DNA from: an uncultured Acidimicrobiaceae bacterium
GTDB lineage: Bacteria; Actinomycetota; Acidimicrobiia; Spongiisociales; UBA5794
Length of the DNA: 28,706 bases
Assembly (NCBI GenBank): GCA_964621095.1
Contig: CAZULI010000002.1
Span: 1 to 28,706, forward strand
Reading direction: 5' to 3'
Shown: positions 1,565 to 28,706 of the stretch, piece by piece
Layout: the number at the start of each line of letters is the position of its first letter
Numbering within the stretch: the first letter of the stretch is position 1
Program-made: the position numbers and the translations under genes
The notes under the pieces: model-generated
Databases searched by the model: none
Seen by the model: the letters and a program-made list of their open reading frames with translations, nothing else
Told to the model about the DNA's origin: nothing

Positions 1565-1610
1565 CCAGATCGGGTGGTGGCAGAACGCTGCACTCGCAAC
1601 GGAGGTACCA

Positions 1611-2897: not shown

Positions 2898-2915
2898 AAC
2901 GCGGGACATACATCC

Positions 2916-6377: not shown

Positions 6378-6412
6378 ACCGGTCGGGTGAAGTGGCCAAC
6401 CAAAGGAGATCG

Positions 6413-8559: not shown

Positions 8560-8563
8560 TCGG

Positions 8564-10021
8564 ATGGAACGCCACACGTTGACGCACCCCGATCTCGTCA
8601 CCTGGATCGGTGGCGTCCCAGAACTCAGCGCCATTGAGTCGGACGCTGCACTCTTCGATCCCAACACGTCGATCCCGCTCCAGGAGTTGAGATCGTCCTC
8701 TCCGGCACAGACCGACCGGGCCATTGCAGCAGCAGCGTTCGCCCATGAGGCGGGGGAGTGGCGACGGGGTGGCGCCGAGGCTCGCTCGGTGGCGCTGCAT
8801 GCGTTCGCCAAACGTCTTGACGAGATTGCTGACCGTGTTGCGGTGCTCGATGCGATCAACAGCGGGGTACCCATCTCGGTCACCCGCTTGTTTGCCGGAT
8901 CGATGGGGGGGACCGTGCGAGCCGCGGCCGACAGGGCAGTGTCGGTGGGGGACGTCGATACCCTTCCGGCGGACGGTCGCACGGTGCAGTTGCGCAAGGT
9001 GCCGTGGGGGCCGACAGCGTTGATCCTGCCGTGGAACGCTCCTTCCGCCATGGCCACCAAGAAACTCGCGTACTGCCTTGCTGCAGGCGCCACCGCGATC
9101 GTGAAACCATCCCCGATGTCACCGTGGAGCGCCCTCCTCATCGTGGAGGCGGCCCAGGACACCGGGCTCCCCCCAGGAGTGATCAATCTCGTCCTCGGTG
9201 GCCGCGAGGTCGGCGAACAGTTGGTCGGGGACCCTCGGATCCGCGCCATCGCCATGACCGGCTCGACCCCCACGGGGAGAGGGATTGCAGCGAGGGCCGC
9301 GGCCAATCTGACGAGAGTGCAGCTGGAGCTCGGGTCGAACAACGCGGCCATCGTGCGCGCTGATGCTGACCTCGGCGCCACGGCTGCCAGCCTTGCATCG
9401 GGTGCAATGAAACTCTCTGGTCAGTGGTGCGAAGCCCCCCGCCGAGTCCTCGTGGATCACACGATCCTTCCACAACTCGTTGACGCTCTGTGTGAGGCAC
9501 TGGCAGGGATGCGCCTCGGTTCGAGTCTGGAGGATGAGACCGAGATCGGTCCGGTGGCGTTTGAGGCCCGTCGTTCGGAACTGCGGTCACAACTCTCAGA
9601 ACTCGTCGCAGGGGGAGCACGGGCGATCGAAACGGGTACGCCACCGGACGCGGGTTGGTTCGTGTCACCGACGGTGGTTGTCGGTGAGGGCATGAACCCG
9701 GAGCAGGAACTCTTCGGGCCGATCATCACCGTGCAACCGACCCGGGGCGACGACGATGCGGTCGCCATGGGAAACCAGGGTCTTCATGGCCTCGCCGGGT
9801 ATGTCTACTCCGAGAACCTTGACGAGGCGATGGCGATCGGAGCCAAACTCGTGGCGGGCGAGGTGAAGGTGAACGGGTCAAGTGTGCTTGATCTCGCACC
9901 CGACGCCGTTCAGAGTTTCTTTGGGGGGAGTGGCATCGGCGGTCACGGTGATGCGGATCTCCTGGAGTTCTTCCGAGGTACCCAGGTGGTGGGTGTGGAG
10001 GCGCCGGGCCTGCCGATCTGA
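8564..10021 (+). CDS. NAD(P)-dependent aldehyde dehydrogenase (non-acylating ALDH superfamily)
   Basis: PWNAP, TGST, catalytic Glu in LELGSN, catalytic Cys in SGQWCEA, ELFGP; ATG 4 nt after the GS-like stop. Confidence 0.92.
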   Translation: MERHTLTHPDLVTWIGGVPELSAIESDAALFDPNTSIPLQELRSSSPAQTDRAIAAAAFAHEAGEWRRGGAEARSVALHAFAKRLDEIADRVAVLDAINSGVPISVTRLFAGSMGGTVRAAADRAVSVGDVDTLPADGRTVQLRKVPWGPTALILPWNAPSAMATKKLAYCLAAGATAIVKPSPMSPWSALLIVEAAQDTGLPPGVINLVLGGREVGEQLVGDPRIRAIAMTGSTPTGRGIAARAAANLTRVQLELGSNNAAIVRADADLGATAASLASGAMKLSGQWCEAPRRVLVDHTILPQLVDALCEALAGMRLGSSLEDETEIGPVAFEARRSELRSQLSELVAGGARAIETGTPPDAGWFVSPTVVVGEGMNPEQELFGPIITVQPTRGDDDAVAMGNQGLHGLAGYVYSENLDEAMAIGAKLVAGEVKVNGSSVLDLAPDAVQSFFGGSGIGGHGDADLLEFFRGTQVVGVEAPGLPI

Positions 10022-10039
10022 GGGTCGGTGTGCGCCCGG

Positions 10040-10079
10040 GTGTCCTGGTGCCACCGGTGGTTTCGGGCCACCAGGACAC
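10040..10079 (+). terminator. Inverted repeat after operon A (probable terminator)
   Basis: 11-bp perfect stem GTGTCCTGGTG (10040-10050) / CACCAGGACAC (10069-10079), about 20 nt after the ALDH stop and upstream of the next promoter. Confidence 0.6.
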
Positions 10080-10137
10080 GGGTTCAGGGCCGCGTTCATC
10101 GGGGGAGTGTGGAGGTCCAAGCAGCGTTCTGTGCCAG

Positions 10138-10172
10138 TTGCATCCCTTTTGTATGCCGTGTACTGTATACAA
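10138..10172 (+). promoter_or_regulatory. sigma70-type promoter of operon B with overlapping putative GntR operator 3
   Basis: TTGCAT (10138-10143)-N17-TACTGT (10161-10166). GCCGTGTACTGTATACAA (10155-10172) is 14/18 identical to operator 2, in the same register to the -10 box. Confidence 0.65.
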
Positions 10173-10199
10173 GATATCGGTGACAAGGAGGCAGGTGTC

Positions 10200-11144
10200 A
10201 TGTGTGGAATTGCTGGTCGCATCCTTGACAAGCCGGGGCCCGTGGGCGCAGATCTTGTCGAGCTGATGCAGGCCCAGCGGCATCGGGGGGCCGACTCCAC
10301 CGGGTTTGCGCTGTACGGCACACCGCTTGAGTCGGGGTACCGCGTCGGGATGTTCCTTGATGATCGGTCCCAGGCCCCGAACGTCATTGACCGGTTCGGG
10401 CAGATCATGAACCGCCATGGTGCTGACATCGTGGAGACGCCGACCCTCAACGACGCGGACACACGCCACGGCGCACTCCGGTTCACGGTGTCGGAACCCG
10501 ACAGCCCGATCGCCGATTGGACGGCTGAGTGCGACACGATCGGGGGTACTGAACTCCTCTCGGTTGGGCGCTCACTTGAGATCGTCAAGGACGACGGGGA
10601 TGCAGCACAGGTGGCGGATCGCCACGGTGTGCGTGATTTCGTGGGAACGCACGGGACAGGTCACGCCCGACTTGCCACGGAGTCGGTCGTCTCACCCATC
10701 GCAAGCCACCCGTTCTGGGCGAGGCCGTTCCCGGATGTGGCCATCGTGCACAACGGCCAACTCACCAACTACTTCCTGTGGAGGAGACGCCTCGAGCATC
10801 AGGGGTACCGCTTCAGCACCGAGAACGATTCCGAGCTGATCGCCGTGTGGCTCTCTGACCAGATGAATTCGGGGACAACGCTTGAGGAATCCCTTCGGGC
10901 AAGCATCACTGCGCTTGACGGTGTGTTCACGTTCCTTCTGTCAACGTTTGATCAGATCGGGATGGCAAAGGATCGTCTCGCCATCAAGCCCATCGTCGCC
11001 GTTGAGACCAACAGCGAGGCCGCAATGGCGACCGAGGAACAAGCGATCCGGCACTTGTACGGGGGTGAGGTCGAACCGATCAACTACGACGGTCCGGGGA
11101 TGGTCAAGGTATGGCCGGTCAGCACAGGAGTTGGGGTGTCATGA
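10200..11144 (+). CDS. mgsA: Class II (Ntn) glutamine amidotransferase, N-methylglutamate synthase subunit A / GlxB-like
   Basis: N-terminal MCGIAG (Cys1 nucleophile), GHARLATES, HPF, HNGQLTN, TENDSE; AAGGAG RBS; followed by GXGXG and FMN subunits. Confidence 0.85.
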   Translation: MCGIAGRILDKPGPVGADLVELMQAQRHRGADSTGFALYGTPLESGYRVGMFLDDRSQAPNVIDRFGQIMNRHGADIVETPTLNDADTRHGALRFTVSEPDSPIADWTAECDTIGGTELLSVGRSLEIVKDDGDAAQVADRHGVRDFVGTHGTGHARLATESVVSPIASHPFWARPFPDVAIVHNGQLTNYFLWRRRLEHQGYRFSTENDSELIAVWLSDQMNSGTTLEESLRASITALDGVFTFLLSTFDQIGMAKDRLAIKPIVAVETNSEAAMATEEQAIRHLYGGEVEPINYDGPGMVKVWPVSTGVGVS

Positions 11145-11836
11145 GTGAGATCTTGGAGATCGAAGTCGGAGATCGACCGCTACGAGAAGTCAACGCCGAG
11201 ATTCGCACGGCGGTGGAGGAGGGCCGGGACGTCGTGCTCCACGACACACGCTCCCGCCACAACCTCGCGGTCGGGCTTCCACCGGGTGGCTCGGTGACGA
11301 TCCCCGGTGGCGTTGGGTACTACTGCGGTGGGCTCAACACGGGATCACGTGTCGCCATCGGCCGGAACGCCGGTTGGGGGCTGGGCGAGGCGATGTCGGC
11401 AGGGGAGATCGTCGTGGATGGCTACGCCGGGTTGGGCGTTGGTGCATCGATGCTTGGTGGTCTTGTCCATGTGAAAGGGGACGCCGGACCGAGGGCTGGG
11501 GTCGCGATGAAGGGCGGGGACATCGTGGTGGAAGGGTCCGTGGGGTTTCTGAGCGGGTTCATGGCCCATGCAGGCCGCATCATCGTTCTTGGCGATACGG
11601 AGGACGCGGCCGGGGATTCGTTGTGGGGCGGATGCATGTGGGTGGCAGGAAACGTTCAGTCCCTCGGTGTGGACTCCAAGCTGGTCGATCCTGACGCTGA
11701 CGAGGTGGACTCCGTCGAGGCACTGTTGACCGGTCTCGGGGTTGGTGACAGCAGTCGCTCGTGGAAAAAGATCGTGTCCGGACAGAAGCTCTGGCATTTT
11801 GACGCAAGGGATGCACAAGCATGGCTGATGATTTGA
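11141..11836 (+). CDS. mgsB: GXGXG (GltB/FmdC beta-helix) protein, N-methylglutamate synthase subunit B / GlxC-like
   Basis: Repeating Gly motifs (GRNAGWGLGEAMSAG, GDAGPRAGVAMKGG); ATGA overlap with mgsA. Confidence 0.85.
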   Translation: MSEILEIEVGDRPLREVNAEIRTAVEEGRDVVLHDTRSRHNLAVGLPPGGSVTIPGGVGYYCGGLNTGSRVAIGRNAGWGLGEAMSAGEIVVDGYAGLGVGASMLGGLVHVKGDAGPRAGVAMKGGDIVVEGSVGFLSGFMAHAGRIIVLGDTEDAAGDSLWGGCMWVAGNVQSLGVDSKLVDPDADEVDSVEALLTGLGVGDSSRSWKKIVSGQKLWHFDARDAQAWLMI

Positions 11837-13218
11837 ACAACACCACAGAGAGTCCCGTGATGCTGGAGGACGGGTCGAGTTCCGATCGTCCGGTCGGAAG
11901 TGTCTCGTCGTACGACCGTGGCAAATCAAGCAAGTGGACCCCCGAGTCGATCTCTGAGATCCAGGCCACCGCACAACTGGGTCGGTACGCCATTCGAGGG
12001 TTCTCGACGTTCCACAAGAATCTCCCATCGTTGGATGATCTGACGTTTGTTCCTGCAACACTCACGAGACTCCCCCTTGAGGGGTATCGGGAGGATTGCG
12101 ATGCAACAACGGTGCTCGGTGATCGCCCGGGCCTTGTTGAAAAGCCGATCGAGCTCGCCATCCCCGTGTACATCGCTTCGATGTCGTTCGGGGCTCTGTC
12201 GGCCTCCGCCAAGGCGGCGCTTGGCAAGGGTGCCTCCAAGGTGGGCACCATGACGTGTACCGGTGAGGGTGGGATGCTTGCCGAAGAGCGTGAAGCATCC
12301 GAGACGCTGGTGTACCAGATGACACCGTCACGGTACGGGCTGGACCTCGATCACCTCCGGCGTGCCGACGCCATCGAGATCGCCGTTGGCCAGGGAGCCA
12401 AACCGGGGACCGGCGGCGTCCTCCTGGGGATGAAGGTCTCCGAGCGTGTGGCAAAGATGCGCACCCTCCCCATGGGTGTTGATCAGCGCTCCACGGTGCG
12501 TCACCCCGATTTTCTCGGAGCCGATGACCTCCAGGTGAAGATCGAGGAACTGCGTGAGGCGGTCAATTACAAGGTTCCGATCTTCATCAAGATGGGGGCG
12601 ACGCGTCCCCGCTACGACGTCGCCCTTGCAGCAAAAGCCGGCGCCGACGTCATCGTCCTCGACGGCATGGAGGGCGGAACCAACGCCGCCCCCGAGATTC
12701 TGCTCGACCACACCGGCGTGCCAACGATGGCGGCGATCCGGGCAGGCCGTGAAGCACTCGAGGACGCCGGACTCGCCGACGACGTCAAACTCGTTGCTGC
12801 CGGGGGGATCCGGTCCGGGATTGATGCTGCGAAGGCACTTGCGCTCGGTGCGGACGCCGTCATGATCGGAACCGCCGCGAACATCGCGCTCGGGTGCAAC
12901 GCGCCACGGTACGTGAAGGATTACGAAGCCATCGGAACATCCCCTGGTCAGTGTCACCACTGCCACACGGGTCTCTGCCCGGTCGGCATCCAGACCCAGG
13001 ATCCCGAACTCGAAAAGCGAATGGATGTCGACGCCGGCGCCGAGCGGGTTGCCCGGTTCCTCACGGCGATGACGATGGAGATCACCTTGATCGCCAAGGC
13101 CTGCGGCAAGTCGAGTGTCCACAACCTGGAGCCGGAGGACCTCAGGGCGTTGTCCCTTGAGGCATCGGCGTTCACGGGAGTGGCTCTGGCGGGGATCGAT
13201 CGTCCATACACGTGGTAG
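11821..13218 (+). CDS. mgsC: FMN-binding glutamate synthase family protein, N-methylglutamate synthase subunit C / GlxD-like
   Basis: MSFGALS, TGEGG, GQGAKPGTGG, DGMEGGT, AAGGIRSG, Fe-S cysteines CHHCHTGLCPVGIQTQDP. Confidence 0.88.
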   Translation: MADDLNNTTESPVMLEDGSSSDRPVGSVSSYDRGKSSKWTPESISEIQATAQLGRYAIRGFSTFHKNLPSLDDLTFVPATLTRLPLEGYREDCDATTVLGDRPGLVEKPIELAIPVYIASMSFGALSASAKAALGKGASKVGTMTCTGEGGMLAEEREASETLVYQMTPSRYGLDLDHLRRADAIEIAVGQGAKPGTGGVLLGMKVSERVAKMRTLPMGVDQRSTVRHPDFLGADDLQVKIEELREAVNYKVPIFIKMGATRPRYDVALAAKAGADVIVLDGMEGGTNAAPEILLDHTGVPTMAAIRAGREALEDAGLADDVKLVAAGGIRSGIDAAKALALGADAVMIGTAANIALGCNAPRYVKDYEAIGTSPGQCHHCHTGLCPVGIQTQDPELEKRMDVDAGAERVARFLTAMTMEITLIAKACGKSSVHNLEPEDLRALSLEASAFTGVALAGIDRPYTW

Positions 13219-13249
13219 CGGATCACAGGCAAATGAATGGAGGCCGTCC

Positions 13250-14539
13250 ATGACTGACAAACTTCTCCCCGGGACACACACGATCATTCTCGGCATTGGC
13301 GACCTGTGTGGAATCCTGCGAGGGAAGCATCTTCAGGCATCGATGTGGGAGAAGATCTCGGACCACGGCATCGCGATGGCGAGCGCCATCTTCGTCTTTG
13401 ACATGACGTGTGACATCTGGGACACCCCGTTCTCCAACATGGACAACGGGTACCCGGACCTGTTCGTCACCCCGATCCCGGGAACGCTGCGACCGGTGCC
13501 ATGGGCTGAGGGCACCATGCTCGCCTTCGGCGCTGCGACCCAGGAGAACGGCTCTCCCATACCGACCGATCCACGTCGTGCGCTCCAGAATGTGCTCGCA
13601 CGGTATGACGAGCTGGAGTATCAGGTCAAGGTCGGTGTGGAACTCGAGTTCTTCCTCCTTGACCCCGAGACCAAGGCACCCAGGGACACGGGTGTCCAGG
13701 TCTACGGCGTCGCCCGCGGTGCTCAGTTCGAACATGTCCTCGGGCCGATCCGAAACCAATGCACCGAGTTCGGTATCCCCATCGAGGTCTCCAACCCCGA
13801 GTACTCGAGCGGTCAGTTCGAGGTCAACATCCGTTACGGCGATGCGTTGACGTCGGTGGACAACGCGGTCCTGTTCCGTAGCGCGGTCAAACAAATCGCC
13901 GCCGAGCACGGACTTCTCGCCACGTTCATGGCCAAACCGTTCACCCACGAGTCAGGGAACGGGTTCCATATCCACCAGTCCCTCTGGCAGGGCGACCGAA
14001 ACGTCTTTGCCGATGGGCACCAGCTCTCTGAGCTCGGTCGGCACTACGTCGGAGGACTCCGCCAGCACATGGCGGAGTTCACGCTGTTCGGTGCCCCCAC
14101 CCCCAACAGTTTCAAGCGCCGCGCCCCCTACACGTTCTGTCCCATGAACAACTCCTGGGGAGGCGACAACCGGACCGTCGGTATACGGGCGGTGGAGGGG
14201 CGCCCGGATGCGGTCCGCGTCGAACAGCGTGACGCGAGCGCCGAAGCCAACCCGTATCTCGTGGTCGCAGGACAACTGGTCGCAGGACTGCATGGCATGG
14301 AGGAGAAGCTTGATCCGGGGCCACGAAACAACGGTGACGCCTACGCCGACACGGAGGCCCAACCGCTCCCGATGTCCATCCCGGAGGCGGTGACGGCGTT
14401 GCGTGGCTCCAAGCTTGCCGCAGAGGCGTTTGACCCTCAACTCATTGAGGTCCTGATCCAGATGGCTGAGCGGGAGGAGATGTTCCTGCGCACGAACGTC
14501 ACCGATTTTGAACGGGACCGATACTTGGAGGTGTATTGA
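13250..14539 (+). CDS. Second glutamine synthetase-like gamma-glutamylamide synthetase (GmaS-position gene)
   Basis: [53 protein letters not shown]; GGAGG RBS. Confidence 0.88.
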
Positions 14540-14838
14540 TGCGTATTGCTCGCGTGGTTGGCACGGCAACCGGGTCGGTCAAGGACCCACCGTTGACGGG
14601 CCAGACACTTCTCATCGTCGAGCCCGTGGATGCCCGTGGCGGGTCCATCGGGCCTCACGAGGTCGCCACCGACGCTGGAGTCGGCGCTGGGATCGGCGAC
14701 TGGGTTCTGATGGCGACGGGTTCGTCGGCGCGTCAACCCGGCTCGACACGGGGTGTGGCAACGGACGCTTCCGTTGTCCTCATTCTCGAGGAGCTCAAGT
14801 TGGGCGCCGAGACGACGTACCGCAGCGGTTTGCAATGA
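14539..14838 (+). CDS. BMC vertex pentamer protein (BMC-P, EutN/CcmL family)
   Basis: [15 protein letters not shown]...LLIVEP...[24 protein letters not shown]...DASVVLI is the EutN/CcmL pattern; TGATG coupling to the GS-like gene. Confidence 0.95.
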
Positions 14839-14912
14839 CCACACCAAAGAAAGCAACAAGACCCGCCGAGACGAAAAGTGATTCGATCCCGGCACAAGGA
14901 AAGGAAACGCGA

Positions 14913-15206
14913 ATGGCGGATCAGTCGAAAATGGCATTGGGCATGGTGGAAACGAAGGGGATGGCTGCAGCGACCGAAGCTGCGGACGCGATGCTCAAGG
15001 CCGCCAATGTGGAGCTCACCAGCTACGTGCAGGTTGGCGGAGGTCTCGTGACGGTGTTTATCCGGGGCGAGGTTGGTGCGGTCAAGGCGGCAACGGACGC
15101 AGGCGCCGTTGCGGCGAGCAAGATCGGTGATGTCCAGTCCGTCCACGTCATCGCCCGGCCCCATGACGAACTCCCGAACGTCATGTCCTACATCACCAGC
15201 GCCTGA
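14913..15206 (+). CDS. BMC shell hexamer (BMC-H, EutM/PduA/CcmK family)
   Basis: [22 protein letters not shown]...[23 protein letters not shown]...VHVIARPH. An alternative in-frame ATG at 14835 would add 26 aa. Confidence 0.96.
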
Positions 15207-15246
15207 GCACATGATCTCGTTCCGCCCACCCGTGGGAGGCGTCTGA

Positions 15247-16632
15247 GTGGACGCCGACCTGCGAAGCATCGCTCACGCCCGGGATTGTGCCGAACGCGCC
15301 AGCGTCGCGTTCGGTCAATTTCGTGGTGCCTCGCAGGAGGCCATTGACCGGATCGTTGAGGCAATGGCACGGGCAGCGGTCAGGGAGGCGGGGAGGCTTG
15401 GCGCCCTGGCAGCCGAAGAGACGGGGTACGGCAACGCCGAGGACAAGCGGATGAAGAACATCTACAACGCCCTGGGCGTTGCGGAGTGGCTTCGCAACGT
15501 GCGCACCGTCGGCGTGCTCTGGAAGGATGAGCGCACCAAGGTGATGGCGATCGGTGAGCCCATGGGGATCATCGCGGCGCTGATTCCGGTGACCAACCCG
15601 ACAGCGACGGTGATCTTCAAGGCGCTGAGTGCCGTCAAGGCAGGGAACGCGATCATCTGTGCCCCGCACCCGCGGGGTGTTCGCTCCGGGGTGGAGACGA
15701 CAGCGGTCCTTGCGGCTGCTGCCACCGAGGCGGGCGCGCCGCCCAACCTGGTTCAGTGTCTGAGCGAGGTCACCCTTGAAGCCACCTCCGAGTTGATGCG
15801 ACATCGCAAGACCTCGCTGGTGATGGCGACCGGTGGTGCTGACATGGTGCGGGCCGCGTACTCCTGTGGAAAGCCGACCCTCGCGGTTGGACCGGGGAAC
15901 GTGCCGGTGTACGTGGATGCGTCCAAACGTCACGAGCTTGAGGAGGTTGCCGAACAGATCCTCACCTCAAAGGCGTTCGACAACGGCACGGCGTGTGTGG
16001 CCGAACAAGCCGTGGTTGCCCACCGTGAGATCGCCCGTCCGCTTCGGGATGCGTTCAGAGCCAAAGGTGCGTATTTCTGCACCCCGTCCCAGGCCGAAGC
16101 CCTTGCCAAGGTGATGTTCAACGAACGAGGTGGACAGATCCCCACCCGAGTGGCGCAATCAGCCGCCAGGCTTGCCGAGTTGGCGGGGTTTGATGTGCCG
16201 ATGCGCACGCGGGTGCTCGTGGCTGACGCGTCAGAGGTGGGGAGAAACACTCCGCTCTCGCGGGAGAAACTCAACCCTGTGCTTGCGTTCTACGAGGTGG
16301 GATCGGTGGATGAGGGGTACCGCCTCTGTGAGGCGGTCCTGAACTTTGGTGGCCTCGGTCACAGTGCTGCGGTCCACACCGATGACGCCACGGTCAAGGC
16401 GCAGTTCTCCATGCTGCCGGTCGGCAGGCTGTTGATCAACACCCCGTGTGCGCTCGGTGGCATGGGGTACTCGACCGATCTCGAGCCAAGCTTCATGCTC
16501 GGTACCGGGACCTGGTCCGGATCGATTGTGTCTGACAACGTGACGGCGCTTCACTTGATCAACATCAAGCGGATCGCCGAAGAGACGCGGCCGTGGCGGA
16601 GTTTTGGTGAAATTGAAAGGACAATTCGATGA
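15247..16632 (+). CDS. CoA-acylating aldehyde dehydrogenase (EutE/PduP/AdhE-N family)
   Basis: PVTNPTAT, ATGGADMVRAAYSCGKP, VGPGNVP, catalytic SKAFDNGTACVAEQ, REKLNPVL, SFMLGTG; GGGAGG RBS. Confidence 0.93.
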   Translation: MDADLRSIAHARDCAERASVAFGQFRGASQEAIDRIVEAMARAAVREAGRLGALAAEETGYGNAEDKRMKNIYNALGVAEWLRNVRTVGVLWKDERTKVMAIGEPMGIIAALIPVTNPTATVIFKALSAVKAGNAIICAPHPRGVRSGVETTAVLAAAATEAGAPPNLVQCLSEVTLEATSELMRHRKTSLVMATGGADMVRAAYSCGKPTLAVGPGNVPVYVDASKRHELEEVAEQILTSKAFDNGTACVAEQAVVAHREIARPLRDAFRAKGAYFCTPSQAEALAKVMFNERGGQIPTRVAQSAARLAELAGFDVPMRTRVLVADASEVGRNTPLSREKLNPVLAFYEVGSVDEGYRLCEAVLNFGGLGHSAAVHTDDATVKAQFSMLPVGRLLINTPCALGGMGYSTDLEPSFMLGTGTWSGSIVSDNVTALHLINIKRIAEETRPWRSFGEIERTIR

Positions 16633-17255
16633 CAGGATCCAGGACCGATATCCGGGCGCTGATGCAGATCGATCGGTTGCAGCCCCGGTTTGCGGCGTAC
16701 AGCGCGGCAACCGTGCGAGGCTCCATCCCCCTTGAGGGCGACACCTTGCTCGTTGGTGAGATCGCCCCTGGGAACGCCGTGTTCCAGATCGTCGACATCG
16801 CGCTGAAGGCCGCTGAGATCGAGTCGGTGTCCCAGATCGTGGAACGCGAGTTCGGGTTCTTCATGCTCCGGTCGCCGGTCAACACCTCGATCTCGATCGC
16901 CCGTGACGCGATCCTGGAGTATCTCGGCGCAGAGATGTCGGATCGGATGAAACCGAAGGTCGAAAGCACACAACGCATCACGTCGGTGGAACCCCATCAG
17001 GCCAAGCTGCTCAACATCTGGCGGCAGGGGTCACTCGTCATCCCCGGAAGCACCCTCGGGATGCTTGAGTGTTCACCCGCTGCCTACATCACGATCGCCG
17101 CCAATGAGGCAGAGAAGGCGGCAGACGTCGACATCGTCGAAGTCAGGGCGTTGGGTCGGTTCGGACGAATGTTCATCGCAGGAACCCAGGACAGTGTCAG
17201 CACAGCCCTTGATGCTGCCACGGCCGCCATCGAAGGGACGGATGGCCGTTCATGA
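16629..17255 (+). CDS. BMC trimer shell protein (BMC-T, CcmP-like double-stacking type)
   Basis: IDRLQPRFAAY...GEIAPG...DIALKA...VEREFG and second domain SPAAYITIAANEAEKAADV...GRFGRMFIAG resemble CcmP / Haliangium BMC-T; ATGA overlap with the AldDH. Confidence 0.9.
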   Translation: MTGSRTDIRALMQIDRLQPRFAAYSAATVRGSIPLEGDTLLVGEIAPGNAVFQIVDIALKAAEIESVSQIVEREFGFFMLRSPVNTSISIARDAILEYLGAEMSDRMKPKVESTQRITSVEPHQAKLLNIWRQGSLVIPGSTLGMLECSPAAYITIAANEAEKAADVDIVEVRALGRFGRMFIAGTQDSVSTALDAATAAIEGTDGRS

Positions 17256-18424
17256 ACGTCATTGGAGAACACGATGTGAGGGCAGCAGCGGCCCGCAGCG
17301 ACGTGATCGTCGTTGGTCCGAACGATCTCCTGACACCCAACGCTCGGGATCTGGTCGCCCAGCTCGGACTGCGGATCGTTGCCCAACCGGTTGAAGCCGT
17401 CTCCACCAACGCCCCCGATCACGCGACCGCAGTGAGGCGTGTTCTGTTGCGCCGATCCCCGAAGTGGATTGCTCCCCAAGCGAAGGGTTCCACCACCGAG
17501 AGACCGTTTGAGCGGATCGCGATGGTCGGTTGCGGCGCGGTGGGCGCCGCAACCGCACACCTTGCGGCTGCCCGCCAGGCCGCCAAGAGCCTCGCACTCA
17601 TCGATCTCGTGCCAGGTCTCGCTTCAAGCACGGCTCTTGACATCGAACACGCCTCCGGCATCACGGGTTCCCCCACCACGTGCGTCGGTGGGGAGACAAT
17701 GGATCTCATCGCGGACGCCGATGTCGTGGTGGTGACCGCCGGCAAGCCACGGTCCCCTGGGATGCCACGGGCCGATCTGCGCGACATCAACGCCAAGGTG
17801 ATCGGGGGAGTCGCGGCAGCCGTCCAGGAGTACGCGCCCAACGCGGTCCTCATCGTGGTGACGAACCCGCTCGATGAGATGACGTACGAAGCGTTCCGGT
17901 CCACCGACCTCCCACGCGAACGAGTCCTTGGTATGGCAGGGACCCTCGATTCAAGCCGGTTCCGCTGGGCGTTGGCGACCGAAGCCAAGGTGCACCCGCG
18001 TGATGTGTCAGCGTTCACCCTTGGGAGTCACGGGGATGAGATGGTGCCGATTCTCTCCCTTGCAACCATCAAGGGTCGCCCGGTGACTGAGGTTCTCCCC
18101 AAGGACGCGATTGAACGGTGCGTCCAGGAGACCGTCCATGGGGGCGGCCGCGTCGTTGCCCTACGGCGGACCGGATCGGCGTCGATTGCACCTGCCCACT
18201 CCATCGTTGAGATTCTCGACGCCATGCGCGGTGTGATACCGGGACCCATTCCCGTGTCGGTCGTCCTGCAGGGTGAGTACGGCATCAAGGATGTTGTGGT
18301 GGGTGTTCCCGTTCAACTCGGGATGGGTGGTTTGGAGCGGATCGTGGAGATGCCGCTCAGTGAGGCTGAGCTCAAGATGCTCCGGGAAGCGGCAAGCGTC
18401 GTGAAGGGGCGAATGGTCCAATGA
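17252..18424 (+). CDS. mdh: Malate dehydrogenase (LDH/MDH superfamily) with ~87-aa N-terminal extension
   Basis: GCGAVG, LID, TAGKPRSPGMPRADL (Arg at the MDH specificity position), VTNPLD, GMAGTLDSSRF, GSHGD; extra N-terminal domain containing LLTPNARD. Confidence 0.85.
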   Translation: MNVIGEHDVRAAAARSDVIVVGPNDLLTPNARDLVAQLGLRIVAQPVEAVSTNAPDHATAVRRVLLRRSPKWIAPQAKGSTTERPFERIAMVGCGAVGAATAHLAAARQAAKSLALIDLVPGLASSTALDIEHASGITGSPTTCVGGETMDLIADADVVVVTAGKPRSPGMPRADLRDINAKVIGGVAAAVQEYAPNAVLIVVTNPLDEMTYEAFRSTDLPRERVLGMAGTLDSSRFRWALATEAKVHPRDVSAFTLGSHGDEMVPILSLATIKGRPVTEVLPKDAIERCVQETVHGGGRVVALRRTGSASIAPAHSIVEILDAMRGVIPGPIPVSVVLQGEYGIKDVVVGVPVQLGMGGLERIVEMPLSEAELKMLREAASVVKGRMVQ

Positions 18425-18443
18425 GGGTTCTTGGAGGTGATCG

Positions 18444-19760
18444 ATGAACAACGAAGAAATGCTTTCCGAAATACTCGATGAGCTGAAGAGTTGGAGGGAG
18501 AAGGAGGACGGCTCCCCCCGCATGAGCCAAGCTGAGGCGAAGGCGACGTATCAGGCCGGGTTCGAACGTGCCGTGGATCCCTCACGGCGGGCCCACAAGG
18601 CTGGCAGTCTCAAGGTCACCATCCTCGGCGGTGGCAACGGCGGCATGGCCATGGCTGGCCACATGGCGATTCTTGGCTACGAGATCACCATGTGGTCCCC
18701 GTTCTCGTGGGAGCTTGAACCGATCGAGGAGAAGGGGGGAGTCTCGATCATCGGTTCAGAAGTCTCCGGATTCGGCAAGGTGGCAAAAGTCACCCCCAGC
18801 ATTGATCTGGCGGTCAAAGGCGCCGATCTGATCATGATCATCGCCCCAGCAATGGCACACAAGACGTACGCCTCGATGCTGGCGCCGTTGCTGCGTGACG
18901 GTCAGGTCGTGGTGCTCAACCCGGGACGTACCGGCGGCTCGTTGGAGTTCGCCCGGACCCTCACACGAAACGCGTGTTCAGCGCGGATCGTCCTCGGTGA
19001 GACCCAGACGTTCATTTACGCCGCTGAACGCAAGGATGCGTACACCGTCGAGATCCTCAAGGAGAAGTTCCGGATGCGGGCTGCAGCGCTTCCGGCAGCG
19101 GACAACGATCTTCTGATGGATCCGTTGCGTGATCTGTATCCACAGATCGAACCTGCCCAGAACGTCCTGGAGACCGGACTCAACAATGTAGCACCCGTCG
19201 TGCACCCCGGCACGGTGCTCCTGAACACCTCGGTGCTTGAGCGCACGGCGGCAGGCGAGCCGCTCAAGTTCTACCAGGATCAGGTGACGCCGACGATCGC
19301 CACTCTCATCATGGGAAAGCTTGACCAGGAGAAGCAGAACGTTGCCAAAGCCCTCGGCCTCAAGGAGGTCTGGTCGCTGCTTGACTGGTACCGGGAGAGC
19401 TACCACATCGTGGGTGACTCGATCTTTGAGGTCATCCGAGCCAACCCGTACATTGCGGGGTTCACCGCTCCAAGCAACATCCTGGCCCAGAACCACGTCC
19501 TCGACGATGTTCCCAACTCACTGGTCCCGATCTCAGATTTCGGCAAGGTGCTCGGCGTGGCCACACCAACCATCGACTCGATCGTCCACCTCGCAAGCGC
19601 CATGTGTTCGATTGATTGGTGGGAGGAGGGCAGAACGGTGAGCGGTCTCGGGTTGGGTGGCATGTCCATTGACCACATGATCGAGCACGTTGAACGCACG
19701 GCTCTCGGCGGGAAGTGCTCGGAGTCCGGTGTGTGCCGTGCCTTCGGGTTCTACAAGTAG
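18444..19760 (+). CDS. NAD/NADP opine (octopine/nopaline) dehydrogenase family protein with ~55-aa N-terminal extension
   Basis: ILGGGNGG, LNPGRTGG, ETQTFIYA, LNNVAPVVHPG, DWYRESY, DDVPNSLVP, GVATPTIDSIVHLAS; GGAGG RBS. Confidence 0.87.
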   Translation: MNNEEMLSEILDELKSWREKEDGSPRMSQAEAKATYQAGFERAVDPSRRAHKAGSLKVTILGGGNGGMAMAGHMAILGYEITMWSPFSWELEPIEEKGGVSIIGSEVSGFGKVAKVTPSIDLAVKGADLIMIIAPAMAHKTYASMLAPLLRDGQVVVLNPGRTGGSLEFARTLTRNACSARIVLGETQTFIYAAERKDAYTVEILKEKFRMRAAALPAADNDLLMDPLRDLYPQIEPAQNVLETGLNNVAPVVHPGTVLLNTSVLERTAAGEPLKFYQDQVTPTIATLIMGKLDQEKQNVAKALGLKEVWSLLDWYRESYHIVGDSIFEVIRANPYIAGFTAPSNILAQNHVLDDVPNSLVPISDFGKVLGVATPTIDSIVHLASAMCSIDWWEEGRTVSGLGLGGMSIDHMIEHVERTALGGKCSESGVCRAFGFYK

Positions 19761-19763
19761 GGG

Positions 19764-20108
19764 ATGGCCGTGATGCAAGAGTTCTCGGGTCGACCCGTCA
19801 TCTCGGGGGAGCAGATCGAAGCAGCCGCCGAGATGGGACGTTCAGAACTGGTGATCCCTGCTGGCGCCCTCATCACGCCGCTGGCACACGAGCGGGCAGC
19901 CGCGTTGGGCATCTCTCTCAGCTCAAGCGTTGCTCCCGATCGTCACGCCGGCCACGCCGCCAGAAGAGCAGCGACGCAGGCCAAGGCGAGAGAGATCGTG
20001 GCGCGGGTGGTGGCCGCCCGGGGTGGTGACCCATCGATGGTCGATGACATGGTCAAGACCGTGATGGAGCGCATGTCGAGTAGCTGCAAGTGTGGCGATC
20101 ACCGGTAG
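19764..20108 (+). CDS. Small BMC-associated hypothetical protein (ITPxA module plus C-terminal amphipathic helix)
   Basis: Starts 3 nt after the opine DH stop. N-terminal VISGEQIEAAA...ALITPLAHERAAALGISL; C-terminal MVDDMVKTVMERM. Confidence 0.8.
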   Translation: MAVMQEFSGRPVISGEQIEAAAEMGRSELVIPAGALITPLAHERAAALGISLSSSVAPDRHAGHAARRAATQAKAREIVARVVAARGGDPSMVDDMVKTVMERMSSSCKCGDHR

Positions 20109-20152: not shown

Positions 20153-20182
20153 GAGAAGGGACACCCGAGGGTGTCCCTTCTC
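20153..20182. terminator. Bidirectional intrinsic terminator between operon B and the convergent RRM gene
   Basis: Perfect 14-bp inverted repeat GAGAAGGGACACCC-GA-GGGTGTCCCTTCTC between convergent stops at 20108 and 20200. Confidence 0.8.
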
Positions 20183-20199: not shown

Positions 20200-20460
20200 C
20201 TAGTAGCGCGGGCGGCGCTCCTGGCGTTCCTGTGCTTCGTTCACACGGAGGTTGCGTCCGTCCATGTCCTCGCCGTCAAGTTCCTGCATCGCCTTGCGGG
20301 CAAGATCGTCTGACATCTCCACAAACGCAAAACCGCGTGAGCGGCCCGTTTCGCGGTCGGTGATCAGGGCAACGGAGTCAACCGTACCGATCGCCTCAAA
20401 CCTCGTGCGCACTGATTCTTCAGTTGCACTCCATGGGAGGTTTCCCACGTATAGTCTCAT
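20200..20460 (-). CDS. RNA-binding protein (single RRM domain)
   Basis: RNP2 LYVGNL, RNP1 RGFAFVEM, DRETGRS, GRNLRVNEA; ATG 20460 with GGAG upstream (86 aa). Confidence 0.93.
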   Translation of the reverse strand: MRLYVGNLPWSATEESVRTRFEAIGTVDSVALITDRETGRSRGFAFVEMSDDLARKAMQELDGEDMDGRNLRVNEAQERQERRPRY

Positions 20461-20770
20461 TCTTCCGGCTCCATTTCGATGGAAAGCCCACGGCCGCTGT
20501 CTCTGCACTCCGTCGGAACTCGACTCAAGCTGAAAAATCGGGCTGGGGTTGCTAACGGGTGTGAGATTAGCCCATCGCACGTCAAGACGCACACTTCTTG
20601 TGGCGCGTTTCACCCTGATTTTCATGGCGTGTTGCGGGGGTTCATCGTTGGGTGATGGCCCGCGAATGGCCAACCAGCACGGAGCCGTCAGCGGTGCAAG
20701 CACCTGGCGAAGCGCTGCTCGTGAAGCCAACGGGACGCGTCGTGGTCACCGATGCTGCAGCCGCTGTTGG

Positions 20771-22102
20771 CTACCTTCGAACGAACCGCTGTGCCTTGAG
20801 CTCGAAGCGGGGGAGTGACCCGAGGGCGACGATCTCGATGTCTGGGCGGAGGCCCACCGCAGCTTCGAAACGGGCTCGGACTGCAGCCGTCATGGCACGG
20901 CCATCGACGCCGTCCTGGCATTCCAACTCGATCAGCAGTTCTGCCATTTCGCGCTGGGTTGTCACCGTGACGCGAAACTCCTCGATCCCATCGTGGGCAC
21001 GCAACATGTTCTCGACTGCCGCTGGGAAGATGTTGACGCCACGCACCACGATCATGTCGTCAGCCCGGCCGATCACGCCACCATCGAACCGTGTGAACGT
21101 ACGGCCACACGGGCACGGATCGGTGGTGACCCGCACGACATCCCCGGTGCGGTACCGGAAGACGGGGAACCCGATCCTGCCGAGATTGGTGATGACGAGC
21201 TCTCCCTCCCCGCCGGGTTCCACGGGTGATCCGGTTGCAGGATCAAGCACTTCAACAATGAACTCACTGTCGATGGCGTGGGTCCCGCCGGGCTGGGCTT
21301 CACACTCGAAACTGTGCGCGCCGACTTCGGATGCTCCGGCATGGTCATAGCACTTGGCGCCCCACACCGACTCGATGCGCTGTTTGGTCGCTGGCACATT
21401 CGCCCCCGGTTCACCCGCGTGGACCGTGAGCCGCATCGGGATCGTGCTCAGGTCAAACCCATCCTCCCTGGCAACCTCGGCGAGCCGTAGGGCGTAGGTG
21501 GGGGTGCAGGTCATGGCGGTCACCCCCATCTCGGCCATGAGTCCGAGACGCTGGGACGAGGTACGACCGCCCCCTGGCACCATCAGGGCACCGATGTTTT
21601 GAGCTCCGCCGACGGCGGCCCAGAACCCGATGAACGGGCCAAACGAGAACGGAACGAAGAGGCGGTCCTTCGACGTCAATCCTGCACCGGCGAGCACGAA
21701 CCCCCAGCACCGCTCCCACCAGGCCCAGCTCTCGACGGTATCGAACACCCGCAGGGGGCTGCCCGTCGTGCCGGAGGTCTGGTGGACCCGTGTGTACGCG
21801 CTCTCGGGAAATGTGCAGTTGGTGTTGGTCTCGCTCTCGGCCTGTCCTTCCATGAGCTCGGCCTTCGTGGTGAGCGGTAGCTGTGAGAGATCAGCGAGGG
21901 TGCGGATGTCACGAGGGGCGGCTCCCACCGCATCAAACTTCTTGGTCACGAACCGGTTGCTGCCGTAGGTGGCGTCCACAACCACGGCCAACTTTGACTC
22001 CTGGAGGGCGCGGAGTTGCTCCGGTTCCAGCGTCTCGGTTTCCTGGTCAAAAAAGGTGGTCCCCACAGCCACAGTGTGCTCGTTTTGGGGGTCGCTTCGC
22101 AA
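20771..22102 (-). CDS. Phenylacetate-CoA ligase family protein (PaaK-like aryl-CoA ligase)
   Basis: P-loop HQTSGTTG, YDHAGASE, FRYRTGD, GRADDMIVVRGVNIFP. True start may be GTG 22072 or 22066. Confidence 0.88.
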   Translation of the reverse strand: MRSDPQNEHTVAVGTTFFDQETETLEPEQLRALQESKLAVVVDATYGSNRFVTKKFDAVGAAPRDIRTLADLSQLPLTTKAELMEGQAESETNTNCTFPESAYTRVHQTSGTTGSPLRVFDTVESWAWWERCWGFVLAGAGLTSKDRLFVPFSFGPFIGFWAAVGGAQNIGALMVPGGGRTSSQRLGLMAEMGVTAMTCTPTYALRLAEVAREDGFDLSTIPMRLTVHAGEPGANVPATKQRIESVWGAKCYDHAGASEVGAHSFECEAQPGGTHAIDSEFIVEVLDPATGSPVEPGGEGELVITNLGRIGFPVFRYRTGDVVRVTTDPCPCGRTFTRFDGGVIGRADDMIVVRGVNIFPAAVENMLRAHDGIEEFRVTVTTQREMAELLIELECQDGVDGRAMTAAVRARFEAAVGLRPDIEIVALGSLPRFELKAQRFVRR

Positions 22103-22123
22103 CCCGATTGCGGCACGGGCGAC

Positions 22124-22152
22124 CTGCCGGCAGCAGAATCAGACGCTATCGT
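22124..22152 (+). promoter_or_regulatory. Putative promoter giving a (near-)leaderless boxC transcript
   Basis: CTGCCG (22124-22129)-N17-TATCGT (22147-22152); GTG start 8 nt downstream with no SD sequence. Confidence 0.45.
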
Positions 22153-22160
22153 GACCATAC

Positions 22161-23804
22161 GTGATTGAGTTCCAGACACACCCCGACCAGTACCGGCATT
22201 GGCGCCTGGGGGTTGACGGCCGCGTCGCAACCCTCGACATGGATGTGGACCCCGATGGTGGGCTTCACGACGGGTACACCCTCAAACTCAACTCGTACGA
22301 TCTCGGCGTCGACATCGAACTCGCTGACGCCATCCAACGGCTCCGGTTCGAGCATCCCGAGGTTGGTGCGGTGGTGATCGGATCGGCGATGGACCGGGTG
22401 TTCTGTGCTGGTGCCAACATTCCGATGCTTGCCGGTGCCCCGCACCCGCTCAAGGTCAACTTCTGCAAGTTCACCAACGAGACCCGCAACGGGATCGAGG
22501 AGGCATCCGCGGAGTCTGGGCAGCGCTACATCGCGGCAATCAACGGCACGGCTGCTGGTGGCGGGTACGAACTTGCCCTTGCCACGGATCACATCATGTT
22601 GATCGATGATGGGTCCGCTTCAGTGGCTCTGCCGGAAGTGCCGCTCCTGGGGGTACTGCCGGGTACGGGTGGGTTGACGCGTCTTGTCGACAAACGGTTC
22701 GTGCGCCGTGATCGTGCCGACGTCTTCTGCACCGTTGAGGAGGGGATCAAGGGCACGAAAGCGGTGGAGTGGAACCTCATTGATGAACTGGTCCCCGGAT
22801 CCCGGTTTGATGAGATCGTCCACGAGCGCGCCGTGGAGTTCGCAGATGCGAGCCCGCGACCTGCCGAGGGACCAGGGGTGATCCTGACACCGCTCGATCG
22901 CACGATCAGCGAGAACGCACTGACGTACTCGTCGGTATCGGTGTCCATTGACCGCATGGCACGCTCTGCGGAGTTCATCATTGCAGGGCCATCAGATGGC
23001 GCTCCACCCGACGGGGACGGTGCCCGATCACTCGGGGCGGCATGGTGGGCGCTGCGGGTGGCTCGTGAACTCGACGACGCCATTTTGCACCTGCGAGTCA
23101 ACGAACTCGAGATCGGGACCTGGGTCATCCGTACCGAGGGTGACCTGGCGTTGGTGCTTGACCACGACCGCTTCCTCCATGAGTACGCCAGCCACTGGTT
23201 CGTCCACGAGGTGATGCTGTACTGGCGACGAATCCTCAAGCGCATCGATGTCTCATCTCGTTCGATCGTTGCCCTCATCGAACCCGGGTCCTGTTTCGGC
23301 GGGGTCCTGTTCGAGTTGGTACTCGCTGCCGACCGGGCGTATATGTTCCTTGGCGAGGACGACGACGGAGAGACTGCCCGGGTTGCGGTGACCGCGTCAA
23401 GCACCGGACCTCTCACCATGAGCAACGGGTTGACCCGCATCGCCACGCGCTTTTGGGGTGACGACGACGCACGACAGAGCGCGGAAGCGACGGTCGGCTT
23501 GACCCTTGATGCTGAGGAGGCCACGGAGGCGGGTCTCGTCACCGAGATCTTCGACGACATCGATTGGGAGGATGAACTTCGCCTGATTCTTGAGGAGCGG
23601 ACCTCGTTCAGCCCCGACAGTCTCACTGCCATGGAGGCGAACCTGCGGTTCCCTGGACCTGAGACGTTGGAGACCAAGATCTTCGGCAGACTGACCGCAT
23701 GGCAGAACTGGGTGTTCCAGCGTCCGAACGCATCGGGAGAAGTCGGTGCGCTTGGACGGTACGGAACCGGGCTGCGTCCTGAGTATGACAAGAGGAGGGT
23801 GTAG
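22161..23804 (+). CDS. boxC: 2,3-epoxybenzoyl-CoA dihydrolase (benzoyl-CoA-dihydrodiol lyase)
   Basis: KLNSYDLGVDIELADAIQRLRFEHPEV, KVNFCKFTNETRN, PEVPLLGVLPGTGGLTR, ETKIFGRLTAWQNWVFQRPNA. Confidence 0.95.
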   Translation: MIEFQTHPDQYRHWRLGVDGRVATLDMDVDPDGGLHDGYTLKLNSYDLGVDIELADAIQRLRFEHPEVGAVVIGSAMDRVFCAGANIPMLAGAPHPLKVNFCKFTNETRNGIEEASAESGQRYIAAINGTAAGGGYELALATDHIMLIDDGSASVALPEVPLLGVLPGTGGLTRLVDKRFVRRDRADVFCTVEEGIKGTKAVEWNLIDELVPGSRFDEIVHERAVEFADASPRPAEGPGVILTPLDRTISENALTYSSVSVSIDRMARSAEFIIAGPSDGAPPDGDGARSLGAAWWALRVARELDDAILHLRVNELEIGTWVIRTEGDLALVLDHDRFLHEYASHWFVHEVMLYWRRILKRIDVSSRSIVALIEPGSCFGGVLFELVLAADRAYMFLGEDDDGETARVAVTASSTGPLTMSNGLTRIATRFWGDDDARQSAEATVGLTLDAEEATEAGLVTEIFDDIDWEDELRLILEERTSFSPDSLTAMEANLRFPGPETLETKIFGRLTAWQNWVFQRPNASGEVGALGRYGTGLRPEYDKRRV

Positions 23805-23806
23805 GC

Positions 23807-28314: not shown

Positions 28315-28706
28315 TCACTGCACAATGTGTGCCAGCAGGTCTCCGATCACCAGCTCGGCAGCCTCATCAACATCGTAACCATCGGGCCAAACGGCGAGCA
28401 GCGGACGAAGGTCGTCACGAAAGCTGGGCGTACGGACCTTCTCACGGAGATTCAGCTCTGCCCGGCGTGAGGTGTAGCCATCGGGCCGGTAAGGGGTGAA
28501 CGCCTCAATGATCGAGGGTGCTGGGACTCCAAGCTGGGTGAGCGCAAACCAGAGGTCGAACAGATCCCGTCCTTTCGACCGTTGGAACAACGCCCTGATC
28601 TTGGTGGCCACAAGCTCCGCGAGCGTGAACGTCAAGACATCGGCTTTTTCGGCGAACCAGGTCGACTCAACCGCGTAGGGAAGCCTGATGTGCTGATTGA
28701 CGGGGG
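28315..28706 (-). CDS. AbiEii/AbiGii-type nucleotidyltransferase toxin (type IV TA), C-terminal part; 5' end beyond the window
   Basis: Frame is open to the window edge (PVNQHIRLPYAVESTWFAEKADVLTFTL) and continues ELVATKIRALFQRSKGRDLFDL, matching the family motif E..A.K..A...R...RD..D. Confidence 0.8.
   Translation of the reverse strand, partial: PVNQHIRLPYAVESTWFAEKADVLTFTLAELVATKIRALFQRSKGRDLFDLWFALTQLGVPAPSIIEAFTPYRPDGYTSRRAELNLREKVRTPSFRDDLRPLLAVWPDGYDVDEAAELVIGDLLAHIVQ

Follow-up and report, generated by a model that had tools for sequence, protein, structure and literature searches.

The opine-dehydrogenase homologue and its active site

We analyzed the open reading frame (ORF) at positions 18444-19760 of a 28,706-nt stretch of DNA (the window; contig CAZULI010000002.1) from an uncultured Acidimicrobiaceae bacterium. 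The gene is one of the last in a ~19-kb same-strand array that also encodes glutamine-synthetase (GS)-like ligases, MgsABC-like proteins and the shell proteins of a bacterial microcompartment (BMC; Table 1). Its product is an opine-dehydrogenase-fold protein, as had been recognized in a first-pass annotation made from the sequence alone. Pfam detects the helical Octopine_DH domain (PF02317; 2.9e-32, 112 bits against a cut-off of 30), preceded by a Rossmann-type N-domain, and the closest solved relatives by sequence (phmmer against the PDB) are CENDH (1bg6, E = 1.4e-65) and then scallop octopine dehydrogenase (OcDH, E = 1.8e-14). An AlphaFold model, with 60 homologues as input, has a mean pLDDT of 92, and its core superimposes on 1bg6 with a TM-score of 0.92 and a root-mean-square deviation of 2.1 Å (Foldseek). 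The ribosome-binding site lies 19 nt past the stop of the preceding gene; because this GGAGGTG site precedes the ATG, the N-terminal extension of the protein is very likely translated.

Table 1. Features of the opine-dehydrogenase homologue and of its gene array (window positions)
Feature	Position	Strand	Remarks
GntR/FCD regulator	612-1310	-	divergent, head of array
ABC transporter	1296-6342	+	
Short-chain dehydrogenase/reductase (SDR)	6392-7192	+	
GS-like ligase GS1	7177-8559	+	
NAD aldehyde dehydrogenase	8492-10021	+	non-acylating
MgsA-, MgsB- and MgsC-like genes	9882..13218	+	GATase_6/7; GXGXG; FMN glutamate-synthase domain
GS2, glutamine-synthetase-like ligase	13247..14539	+	GmaS position in gene order; 31% identical to Methylobacterium glnT
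BMC-P pentamer (EutN/CcmL) shell protein	14536..14838	+	
BMC-H hexamer shell protein	14913..15206	+	start inside over-long ORF 14508-15206
CoA-acylating aldehyde dehydrogenase (ALDH; EutE/AdhE-N-like)	15247..16632	+	without encapsulation peptide in the window lineage
BMC-T(dp) tandem-domain shell protein	16629..17255	+	CcmP-like
Malate-dehydrogenase (MDH)-family protein	17252..18424	+	~85-aa N-terminal extension; candidate lumenal NAD+ regenerator; optional across loci
Shine-Dalgarno GGAGGTG	18433..18439	+	4 nt before ATG of ORF 18444-19760
Arg-less opine-dehydrogenase homologue	18444..19760	+	ATG start, 438 aa; proposed encapsulated N-alkylglutamate dehydrogenase
N-terminal helix, residues 3-22	18450..18509	+	core EEMLSEILDELKSW, pattern hh..hh..h; encapsulation-peptide-like
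Linker, residues 23-55	18510..18608	+	Pro/Ala/Gly-rich, poorly conserved; ends in conserved FERAVDPSRR
Dinucleotide-binding motif G-G-G-N-G-G, residues 62-67	18627..18644	+	
Glu195	19026..19028	+	column of second family-invariant Arg (CENDH Arg143 / OcDH Arg149, 'C-R' motif)
Arg212	19077..19079	+	Arg in 152/152 Arg-less sequences, never in canonical enzymes
His254 (VVHP)	19203..19205	+	= CENDH His202 / OcDH His212; clade-invariant
N-H-V-L-D-D, residues 350-355	19491..19508	+	replaces family R-Y-x-x-E-D; Arg to Asn350, Glu to Asp354, Asp355 kept
C-terminal tail G-G-K-C-x5-C-R	19704..19757	+	~18 residues; Cys425 (19716-19718), Cys431 (19734-19736)
114-aa accessory protein	19764..20108	+	EutQ-N-terminus-like / peripheral-subunit-binding-like domain, encapsulation-peptide-like helix (VDDMVKTVMERM), C-terminal C-x-C
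Hairpin, 13-bp stem, terminator-like	20153..20182	.	between operon end and convergent RRM gene; read from sequence

The window protein shares with CENDH of Arthrobacter sp. 1C a two-domain fold, ~35% core identity, the glycine motif and the active-site histidine. It differs in having Asn350 for Arg292, Glu195 for Arg143 and Asp354 for Glu296, in the new residues Arg212, Lys197 and Arg175, and in two additions, 55 residues of helix and linker at the N-terminus and a tail of ~18 residues that contains cysteines. We know of no link between CENDH and shell, GS or Mgs genes. OcDH of Pecten maximus (3c7a, 3c7c, 3c7d and 3iqd) belongs to the same family and also carries the His-Asp dyad, but it is only ~20% identical, and its Arg324 and Arg149 have no counterpart in the window protein.

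A residue-by-residue alignment places NVNAVMHP of CENDH opposite NVAPVVHP, which identifies His254, and T-R-Y-F-F-E-D opposite Q-N-H-V-L-D-D. It confirms the first-pass assignment of a retained His254 and Asp355 and of an altered motif at residues 350-355. We found no variation of His254 among 60 clade members. The dyad aspartate (CENDH Asp297, OcDH Asp329) corresponds to Asp355, in a column that varies between Asp and Glu within the clade; what does not vary is the neighboring acid, Asp354, which is Asp in 152/152 Arg-less sequences and Glu in 57/57 canonical ones.

The loss of the family arginine is equally consistent, since the position of Asn350 (CENDH Arg292, OcDH Arg324) is occupied by Asn, His or Gly throughout the 152 clade sequences and by Arg in all 57 canonical enzymes. 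A second loss had been overlooked: the Glu195 column, Arg in 57/57 canonical enzymes, is Glu in 147/152 Arg-less sequences. Basic residues appear elsewhere. Arg212 (CENDH Asp160) stands where the canonical group has Pro, Ala or Ser, residue 197 (CENDH Glu145) is Arg in 143/152 Arg-less sequences, Lys in the window and Thr, Ser or Ile in canonical enzymes, and Arg175 (CENDH Glu124) is found in 146/152 compared to Glu, Lys or Arg in canonical enzymes. The net change is that two arginines are gone and three basic residues are new; Arg212, together with Lys197 and Arg175, is a possible new carboxylate-binding group, and a carboxylate site may have been lost, shifted or turned over to the two carboxylates of a glutamate moiety. 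Two further changes fall in the nucleotide-binding domain, namely Ser85 (CENDH Asp34), Ser in 147/152 and Asn in 53/57 canonical sequences, and Glu90 (CENDH Arg39), Glu in 145/152 and Arg in 37/57.

Linkage to gamma-glutamylation and shell genes

We compared 84 loci from species-representative genomes and metagenomes, annotating their flanks with the window's own proteins. None of the 120 best database homologues, which span several phyla and 45-100% identity, has the arginine; they carry Asn or, less often, His or Gly. GS-like and/or MgsABC-like genes lie within 10 kb of the opine-dehydrogenase homologue (ODH) in 25 of 31 Arg-less loci and in none of 56 loci with the canonical R-Y-x-x-E-D motif, the latter drawn from Firmicutes, Atribacterota, Chloroflexota and others (Fisher p = 1.7e-16; this value and the one given below for the helix count related genomes separately and so overstate independence). 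Four of the six Arg-less loci lacking both gene types are on contigs shorter than 5 kb. Shell genes are present in 19/31 Arg-less and 0/56 canonical loci. Mgd-type genes (DAO, GCV_T and SoxD/G domains) were not found among the window genes or the annotated neighbors of L001, L002 and L085. The first-pass suggestion of an N-alkylglutamate route lacking Mgd is therefore well supported as genomic context.

In a neighbor-joining tree, the Arg-less group forms one clade within the canonical enzymes. Shell-linked and shell-less members interleave in it, which implies several gains or losses, and these sister enzymes offer a natural experiment on the gain and loss of encapsulation signals. Clade sequences from several phyla, 45-87% identical, share without exception the nucleotide motif, His254, Asp354 and ~45 core positions.

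The first-pass annotation had also described an amphipathic, encapsulation-like helix followed by a linker. Both elements appear in the AlphaFold model (pLDDT of 83-88 for residues 3-22 and below 50 for linker residues 23-40). The amphipathicity of the window helix taken alone is within chance, as 15% of shuffled versions of EMLSEILDELKSWR have a hydrophobic moment at least as high, and the weight of the helix comes instead from its conservation and its co-occurrence with shell genes. About half of the 120 best homologues open with such a helix (for example, DDLVEAIVAELR, KIDAIVAAVLKEL and DFDAIVRAVVREL), after which linkers of variable length give pre-core extensions of ~41-101 aa. Scored as hh..hh..h, after a stricter first expression had missed obvious cases, the helix is present in 15/18 shell-linked Arg-less loci and 0/9 shell-less ones (p = 4.7e-5). 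Reading by eye raises the former count to 17-18 of 18, and two of the three pattern misses begin MYSDILDEL. The closest comparison is within the Thermoleophilia, where the shell-linked L015/L016 proteins read 'ADFDAIVRAVVRELGG', a linker and then PHPPNTRLIPDPPL, whereas the enzymes of seven shell-less loci, 72% identical to them, start straight at PHPPN. We take the window helix to resemble the encapsulation peptides of Pdu and Eut cargo (PduP, PduD and EutC), which are presumably short terminal amphipathic helices with the hh..hh..h pattern, joined by a poorly conserved linker and missing from non-encapsulated homologues.

The C-terminal tail is a second feature that correlates with the shell. 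It was not found in CENDH or canonical opine dehydrogenases, and all shell-linked Arg-less homologues with a recovered C-terminus (L001-L030) carry it as G-G-x-C-x5-C-R. In the seven shell-less loci of the Thermoleophilia group both Cys columns read Ala (GGRCREIGVCR versus GGEARLHGVAR), and the other shell-less members, L003/L004 and L027, also lack the Cys pair. The two cysteines could form a disulfide, a metal site or a tether. From the helix and the gene co-occurrence, the ODH is very probably encapsulated cargo. The GS and Mgs proteins have equal lengths in shell-linked and shell-less loci, which argues that they carry no encapsulation peptide.

The composition of individual loci further delimits the role of the ODH. 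Two minimal loci read MgsABC-GS-P-H-ODH-ALDH-Tdp-small protein-permease-GntR, with no malate dehydrogenase (L001), and GS-P-H-ODH-ALDH-Tdp followed by a regulator, a permease and MgsABC (L085). Apart from the ALDH, the ODH is in both the sole candidate for making an aldehyde. In shell-less loci, SDRs rather than an acylating ALDH flank the ODH: L002 holds MgsABC, 2-oxo-acid-dehydrogenase-like E1/E2, GntR, SDR, GS, ODH and SDR, and in L087 a gap of 33 nt separates GS from ODH and two SDRs lie upstream. The locus of an apparent anaerobe (L088) combines an MttB-family methyltransferase, a corrinoid protein, MgsABC, GS, an ODH with the His-variant motif Y-H-H-V-L-D-E, and RACo, a context that hints at a link to methylated-amine metabolism.

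We also retrieved loci through their ALDH, which is unbiased with respect to the ODH. All seven GS-linked shell loci obtained (L089-L095) contain an ODH-like gene, and their MgsABC, GS, P, H, ALDH, Tdp and MDH proteins are very similar to the window's. The gene in the ODH slot is a divergent form (for example, L090 8814-10001), scoring 79-110 bits against the window enzyme and 22-26 bits against Pfam Octopine_DH, whose cut-off is 30; its glycine motif is degenerate and its N-terminal helix (FAEFAEAA) short. This component has evolved at a rate strikingly unlike that of the others in these loci. The ALDH relatives that rank next (L096-L103) lie in H-ALDH-Tdp-MDH loci that lack both GS and ODH and resemble MIC1.

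Proposed pathway and alternatives

We propose that the window protein works as an NAD(P)+-dependent N-alkylglutamate dehydrogenase inside a MIC2-type microcompartment, where it would supply the acylating ALDH, and estimate the probability of this reading at roughly 55%. A GS-like ligase would first join an imported amine to glutamate at the expense of ATP, and an MgsABC-like complex would turn the resulting gamma-glutamylamide into N-alkyl-L-glutamate; by analogy with the N-methylglutamate pathway of methylotrophs, both steps are placed in the cytosol. The N-alkylglutamate would then pass into the shell, where the ODH would oxidize its alkyl C-N bond to yield glutamate, an aldehyde and NAD(P)H, a step in which it would stand in for the flavoprotein MgdABCD. 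The co-encapsulated EutE-like enzyme would convert the aldehyde to acyl-CoA and, where present, a domain-tagged malate dehydrogenase would re-oxidize NADH with oxaloacetate. The substrate, the direction of the reaction and physical encapsulation are all deduced from sequence and gene context.

Several arguments connect this pathway to the genomic evidence. Cleavage of N-alkylglutamate is plausible because the oxidative cleavage of N-substituted amino acids is the family's reaction type. The ODH would be the aldehyde source because minimal loci hold no other candidate, and it would act downstream of GS and Mgs because it is tied to both with or without a shell. The SDRs that flank it in shell-less loci would suit a carbonyl product. 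An encapsulated NADH consumer, such as the tagged malate dehydrogenase, has a purpose only in a lumen with net NADH production. The earlier designation of the protein as a probable BMC signature enzyme is sustained, as it is the only candidate aldehyde-generating enzyme of the locus.

The methylotroph pathway provides the closest known parallel. The window has a GmaS-type ligase and MgsABC in one cluster (judged by domain triad and order), the MgsA-MgsB-MgsC-GS order is that of Methylobacterium sp. DM1 plasmid pLVM1, and the window MgsC is ~58% identical to the MgsC proteins of methylotroph plasmids. It differs in that methylotroph MgdABCD, a sarcosine-oxidase-like N-methylglutamate dehydrogenase, was not found in the window, and in the proposed last step, which would be NAD(P)+-dependent and take place inside a protein shell, whereas Mgd is a flavoprotein.

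Weak evidence points to a short alkylamine, such as ethylamine or methylamine, as the substrate; the minimal loci contain no extra enzymes for processing an acyl-CoA product. The amine could not be named from the transporters, as the APC-family permeases and the window's Peripla_BP_6 protein match only generic families, far below cut-offs. Dehydratase genes lie 4-6 kb downstream of the ODH in shell-less Thermoleophilia loci, and may reflect mere synteny or be a clue to a hydroxy-alkyl substrate. They encode a B12-type diol/glycerol dehydratase (fused large and medium subunits, plus the small one) and a Peptidase_S58 protein (L002 14964-20410, L087 17164-21174), with a reactivase in L002.

A number of observations weigh against the proposed activity, beginning with the arginine. 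In OcDH, Arg324 is described as an 'Arg sensor', holding the NADH pyrophosphate by a salt bridge and stabilizing domain closure, with the His-Asp dyad beside it (PMC2924402). Because it binds the NADH pyrophosphate, its loss alone does not imply a carbonyl partner free of a carboxylate. The first-pass annotation had assumed that this arginine binds the substrate's carboxylate, an assumption that the OcDH work contradicts, and had argued from its loss to an aldehyde partner, a conclusion that does not follow. Arg212, Arg/Lys197 and Arg175 may also compensate for the missing arginines.

Beyond the active site and the overstated independence of the p-values, the remaining difficulties concern the loci. 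The window GS2 is only 31% identical to the pLVM1 ligase; this divergence suggests a different amine, and the contrast with MgsC would fit a conserved transfer step combined with a different amine-selecting ligase. L003/L004 have neither GS nor Mgs nearby and are the only real exceptions to the linkage, and several Thermoleophilia loci have GS and ODH with no Mgs within 10 kb. Malate dehydrogenase is missing from many loci and there is no phosphotransacylase, leaving cofactor recycling unexplained. Finally, the slot protein of L089-L095 has replaced the His by Glu (LVEVP) and reads LLRDG or LLRCG where the acidic motif would stand, so His-Asp chemistry is not universal for the slot.

The alternative that survives best, though improbable in our judgment, is that the protein is still a 2-oxo-acid opine dehydrogenase in which Arg212, Arg/Lys197, Arg175 and Arg162 replace the lost arginines. 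It might then interconvert an N-substituted glutamate with 2-oxoglutarate and an amine, or act on another amino-acid/2-oxo-acid conjugate. CENDH, the nearest solved relative, uses pyruvate, and the window clade retains His254 and the acidic pair and has placed its three new, clade-invariant basic residues on strands around the Arg143-equivalent position. However, cleaving N-alkylglutamate on its glutamate side would reverse the MgsABC step, and the 56 canonical-motif homologues were never found in a GS/Mgs context. Such an enzyme would also leave unexplained the encapsulation with a CoA-acylating ALDH and the SDR flanks of shell-less loci.

We consider it quite unlikely that the ODH works reductively as an NADH sink, condensing an aldehyde or keto compound with an amino acid to supply NAD+ to the acylating ALDH, much as alcohol dehydrogenase does in metabolosomes. 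The minimal loci L001 and L085 would then have no aldehyde-generating enzyme, and in many loci the sink would be redundant with the tagged malate dehydrogenase. The window locus does lack an alcohol dehydrogenase, and opine dehydrogenases are reversible and serve this role in animals, where OcDH is a cytosolic monomer and a terminal reductase of glycolysis (PMC2924402). But the strict linkage to an ATP-consuming GS-like ligase and MgsABC, maintained in loci lacking both shell and ALDH, places the ODH downstream of these enzymes. Least probable of all is a scaffolding cargo, or another reductase of the 6-phosphogluconate-dehydrogenase superfamily (hydroxy-acid or ketopantoate-reductase-like) with the aldehyde enzyme encoded elsewhere: the L089-L095 sister lineage keeps slot and short helix despite its lost His and degenerate glycine motif, Foldseek also matches ketopantoate reductases and D-mandelate dehydrogenases at lower scores, and the Cys tail and accessory protein hint at assembly functions, but the invariant nucleotide motif, His254, Asp354 and ~45 core positions are expected of an active enzyme, and shell-less loci retain it with no shell to organize.

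If the protein is indeed an encapsulated N-alkylglutamate dehydrogenase, the locus may follow a new metabolosome logic, which we advance tentatively. The organelle would import a glutamate conjugate instead of the nutrient: two cytosolic steps, one of them ATP-dependent, would cage an amine as N-alkylglutamate, and an ODH-derived NAD(P)+ enzyme of undescribed activity, replacing Mgd, would free the aldehyde only inside the shell. An encapsulated malate dehydrogenase would balance the lumenal redox state through a malate/oxaloacetate shuttle, and the Cys pair, with the C-x-C of the accessory protein, would tether cargo to shell. Were the amine methylamine, the result would be a formaldehyde-containing organelle. 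The activity itself, if true, would provide a signature enzyme needing neither B12 nor radical chemistry, and an NAD(P)+-dependent N-alkyl-amino-acid dehydrogenase that could be a biocatalyst for the synthesis of N-alkyl amino acids. The window offers an assayable hypothesis that joins opine dehydrogenases, N-methylglutamate amine catabolism and protein organelles.

The catalogued MIC2 type and the remaining genes of the window

To our knowledge, MIC2 and MIC1 microcompartments have been catalogued with no substrate or signature enzyme assigned. The window locus matches the MIC2 type of Sutter et al. (2021), whose component set is entirely present at 13247-19760. The catalogue notes a possible ~10-aa helical encapsulation peptide on a '6-phosphogluconate-dehydrogenase-like' protein of MIC2, and its entry gives no function or opine-dehydrogenase identity and does not mention MgsABC (PMC8217296, Supplementary Data 2). 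That protein presumably corresponds to the divergent L089-L095 form, which fails the Pfam Octopine_DH threshold that the window form passes. The window protein is the recognizable link between the divergent form and opine dehydrogenases, and would identify the anonymous catalogue protein as an opine-dehydrogenase derivative. In the literature on opine dehydrogenase, N-methylglutamate or gamma-glutamylation with microcompartments and on MIC2 function, we found the system undescribed beyond the catalogue entry. The idea of an encapsulation peptide was already published there (PMC8217296); new relative to the catalogue text and the literature found are the opine-dehydrogenase identity, the motif changes, the MgsABC linkage and the proposed reaction.

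Other components of the array vary between lineages. The acylating ALDH carries a C-terminal encapsulation-peptide-like helix in L001, L011, L015 and L025 (for example, RRVIEDLVQHALERF and LEAFVREIVERVM) and an N-terminal one in L023. Gene order differs as well, being P-H-ALDH-T-MDH-ODH in the window lineage and P-H-ODH-ALDH-T in the lineages with a tagged ALDH. The malate-dehydrogenase-family protein scores above its NCBIfam subfamily cut-off, and its N-domain is specific to the BMC context.

The small domain at the N-terminus of this protein (17252-17506) recurs in the 114-aa accessory protein. It has no Pfam match in either, and gives weak signals to the NCBIfam EutQ N-terminus (E = 0.003) and, for one homologue, to E3_binding/PSBD. 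Proteins of the 114-aa type close L005-L013, L018 and L022-L024, and consist of a ~45-aa domain (I..DVE.AA..G...L.V....IVTPLA.DRA..LGV), a linker, an encapsulation-peptide-like helix (LEDLVAAVM.RLG) and a C-terminal C-x-C; this small protein may be a cargo-shell adaptor. In some ODH homologues of 523-529 aa (P0076, P0087, P0089 and P0105; L086 is a shell locus), an N-terminal region of ~125 aa with the EutQ-N-like small domain takes the place of the helix. This distribution suggests that the domain is an alternative encapsulation module.

Two gene models of the array required correction. The true start of MgsA is probably ~100 codons inside the listed ORF. ORF 14508-15206, listed as a 232-aa shell protein, was rejected as over-extended, since it holds BMC-H at 14913-15206 and, in another frame, BMC-P at 14536-14838. 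In comparisons with the PDB, GS2 is about equally distant from GmaS (7cql) and other GS-like enzymes, which is uninformative. The SDR, GS1 and the non-acylating aldehyde dehydrogenase (6392-10021) resemble what we take to be a gamma-glutamyl amino-alcohol or polyamine oxidation route (Streptomyces GlnA4-type, Puu-type), and a single operon with one ABC transporter may serve two gamma-glutamylation routes in parallel.

Downstream, the gene of an RRM_1 RNA-binding protein (20200-20460, minus strand) converges with the operon end, and ORF 20200-20730 is an over-extension of it. Positions 20771-25249 encode a PaaK-like CoA ligase (minus strand), a 547-aa enoyl-CoA hydratase-family protein and a PaaA/PaaC-like di-iron protein, presumably a benzoyl-CoA (Box) oxidation cluster that is seemingly unrelated to the microcompartment operon. 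The match of ORF 28315-28635 (minus strand) to the AbiEii toxin nucleotidyltransferase is confined to the C-terminal part of the profile (135-222 of 238), and the ORF is probably a fragment or mis-started.

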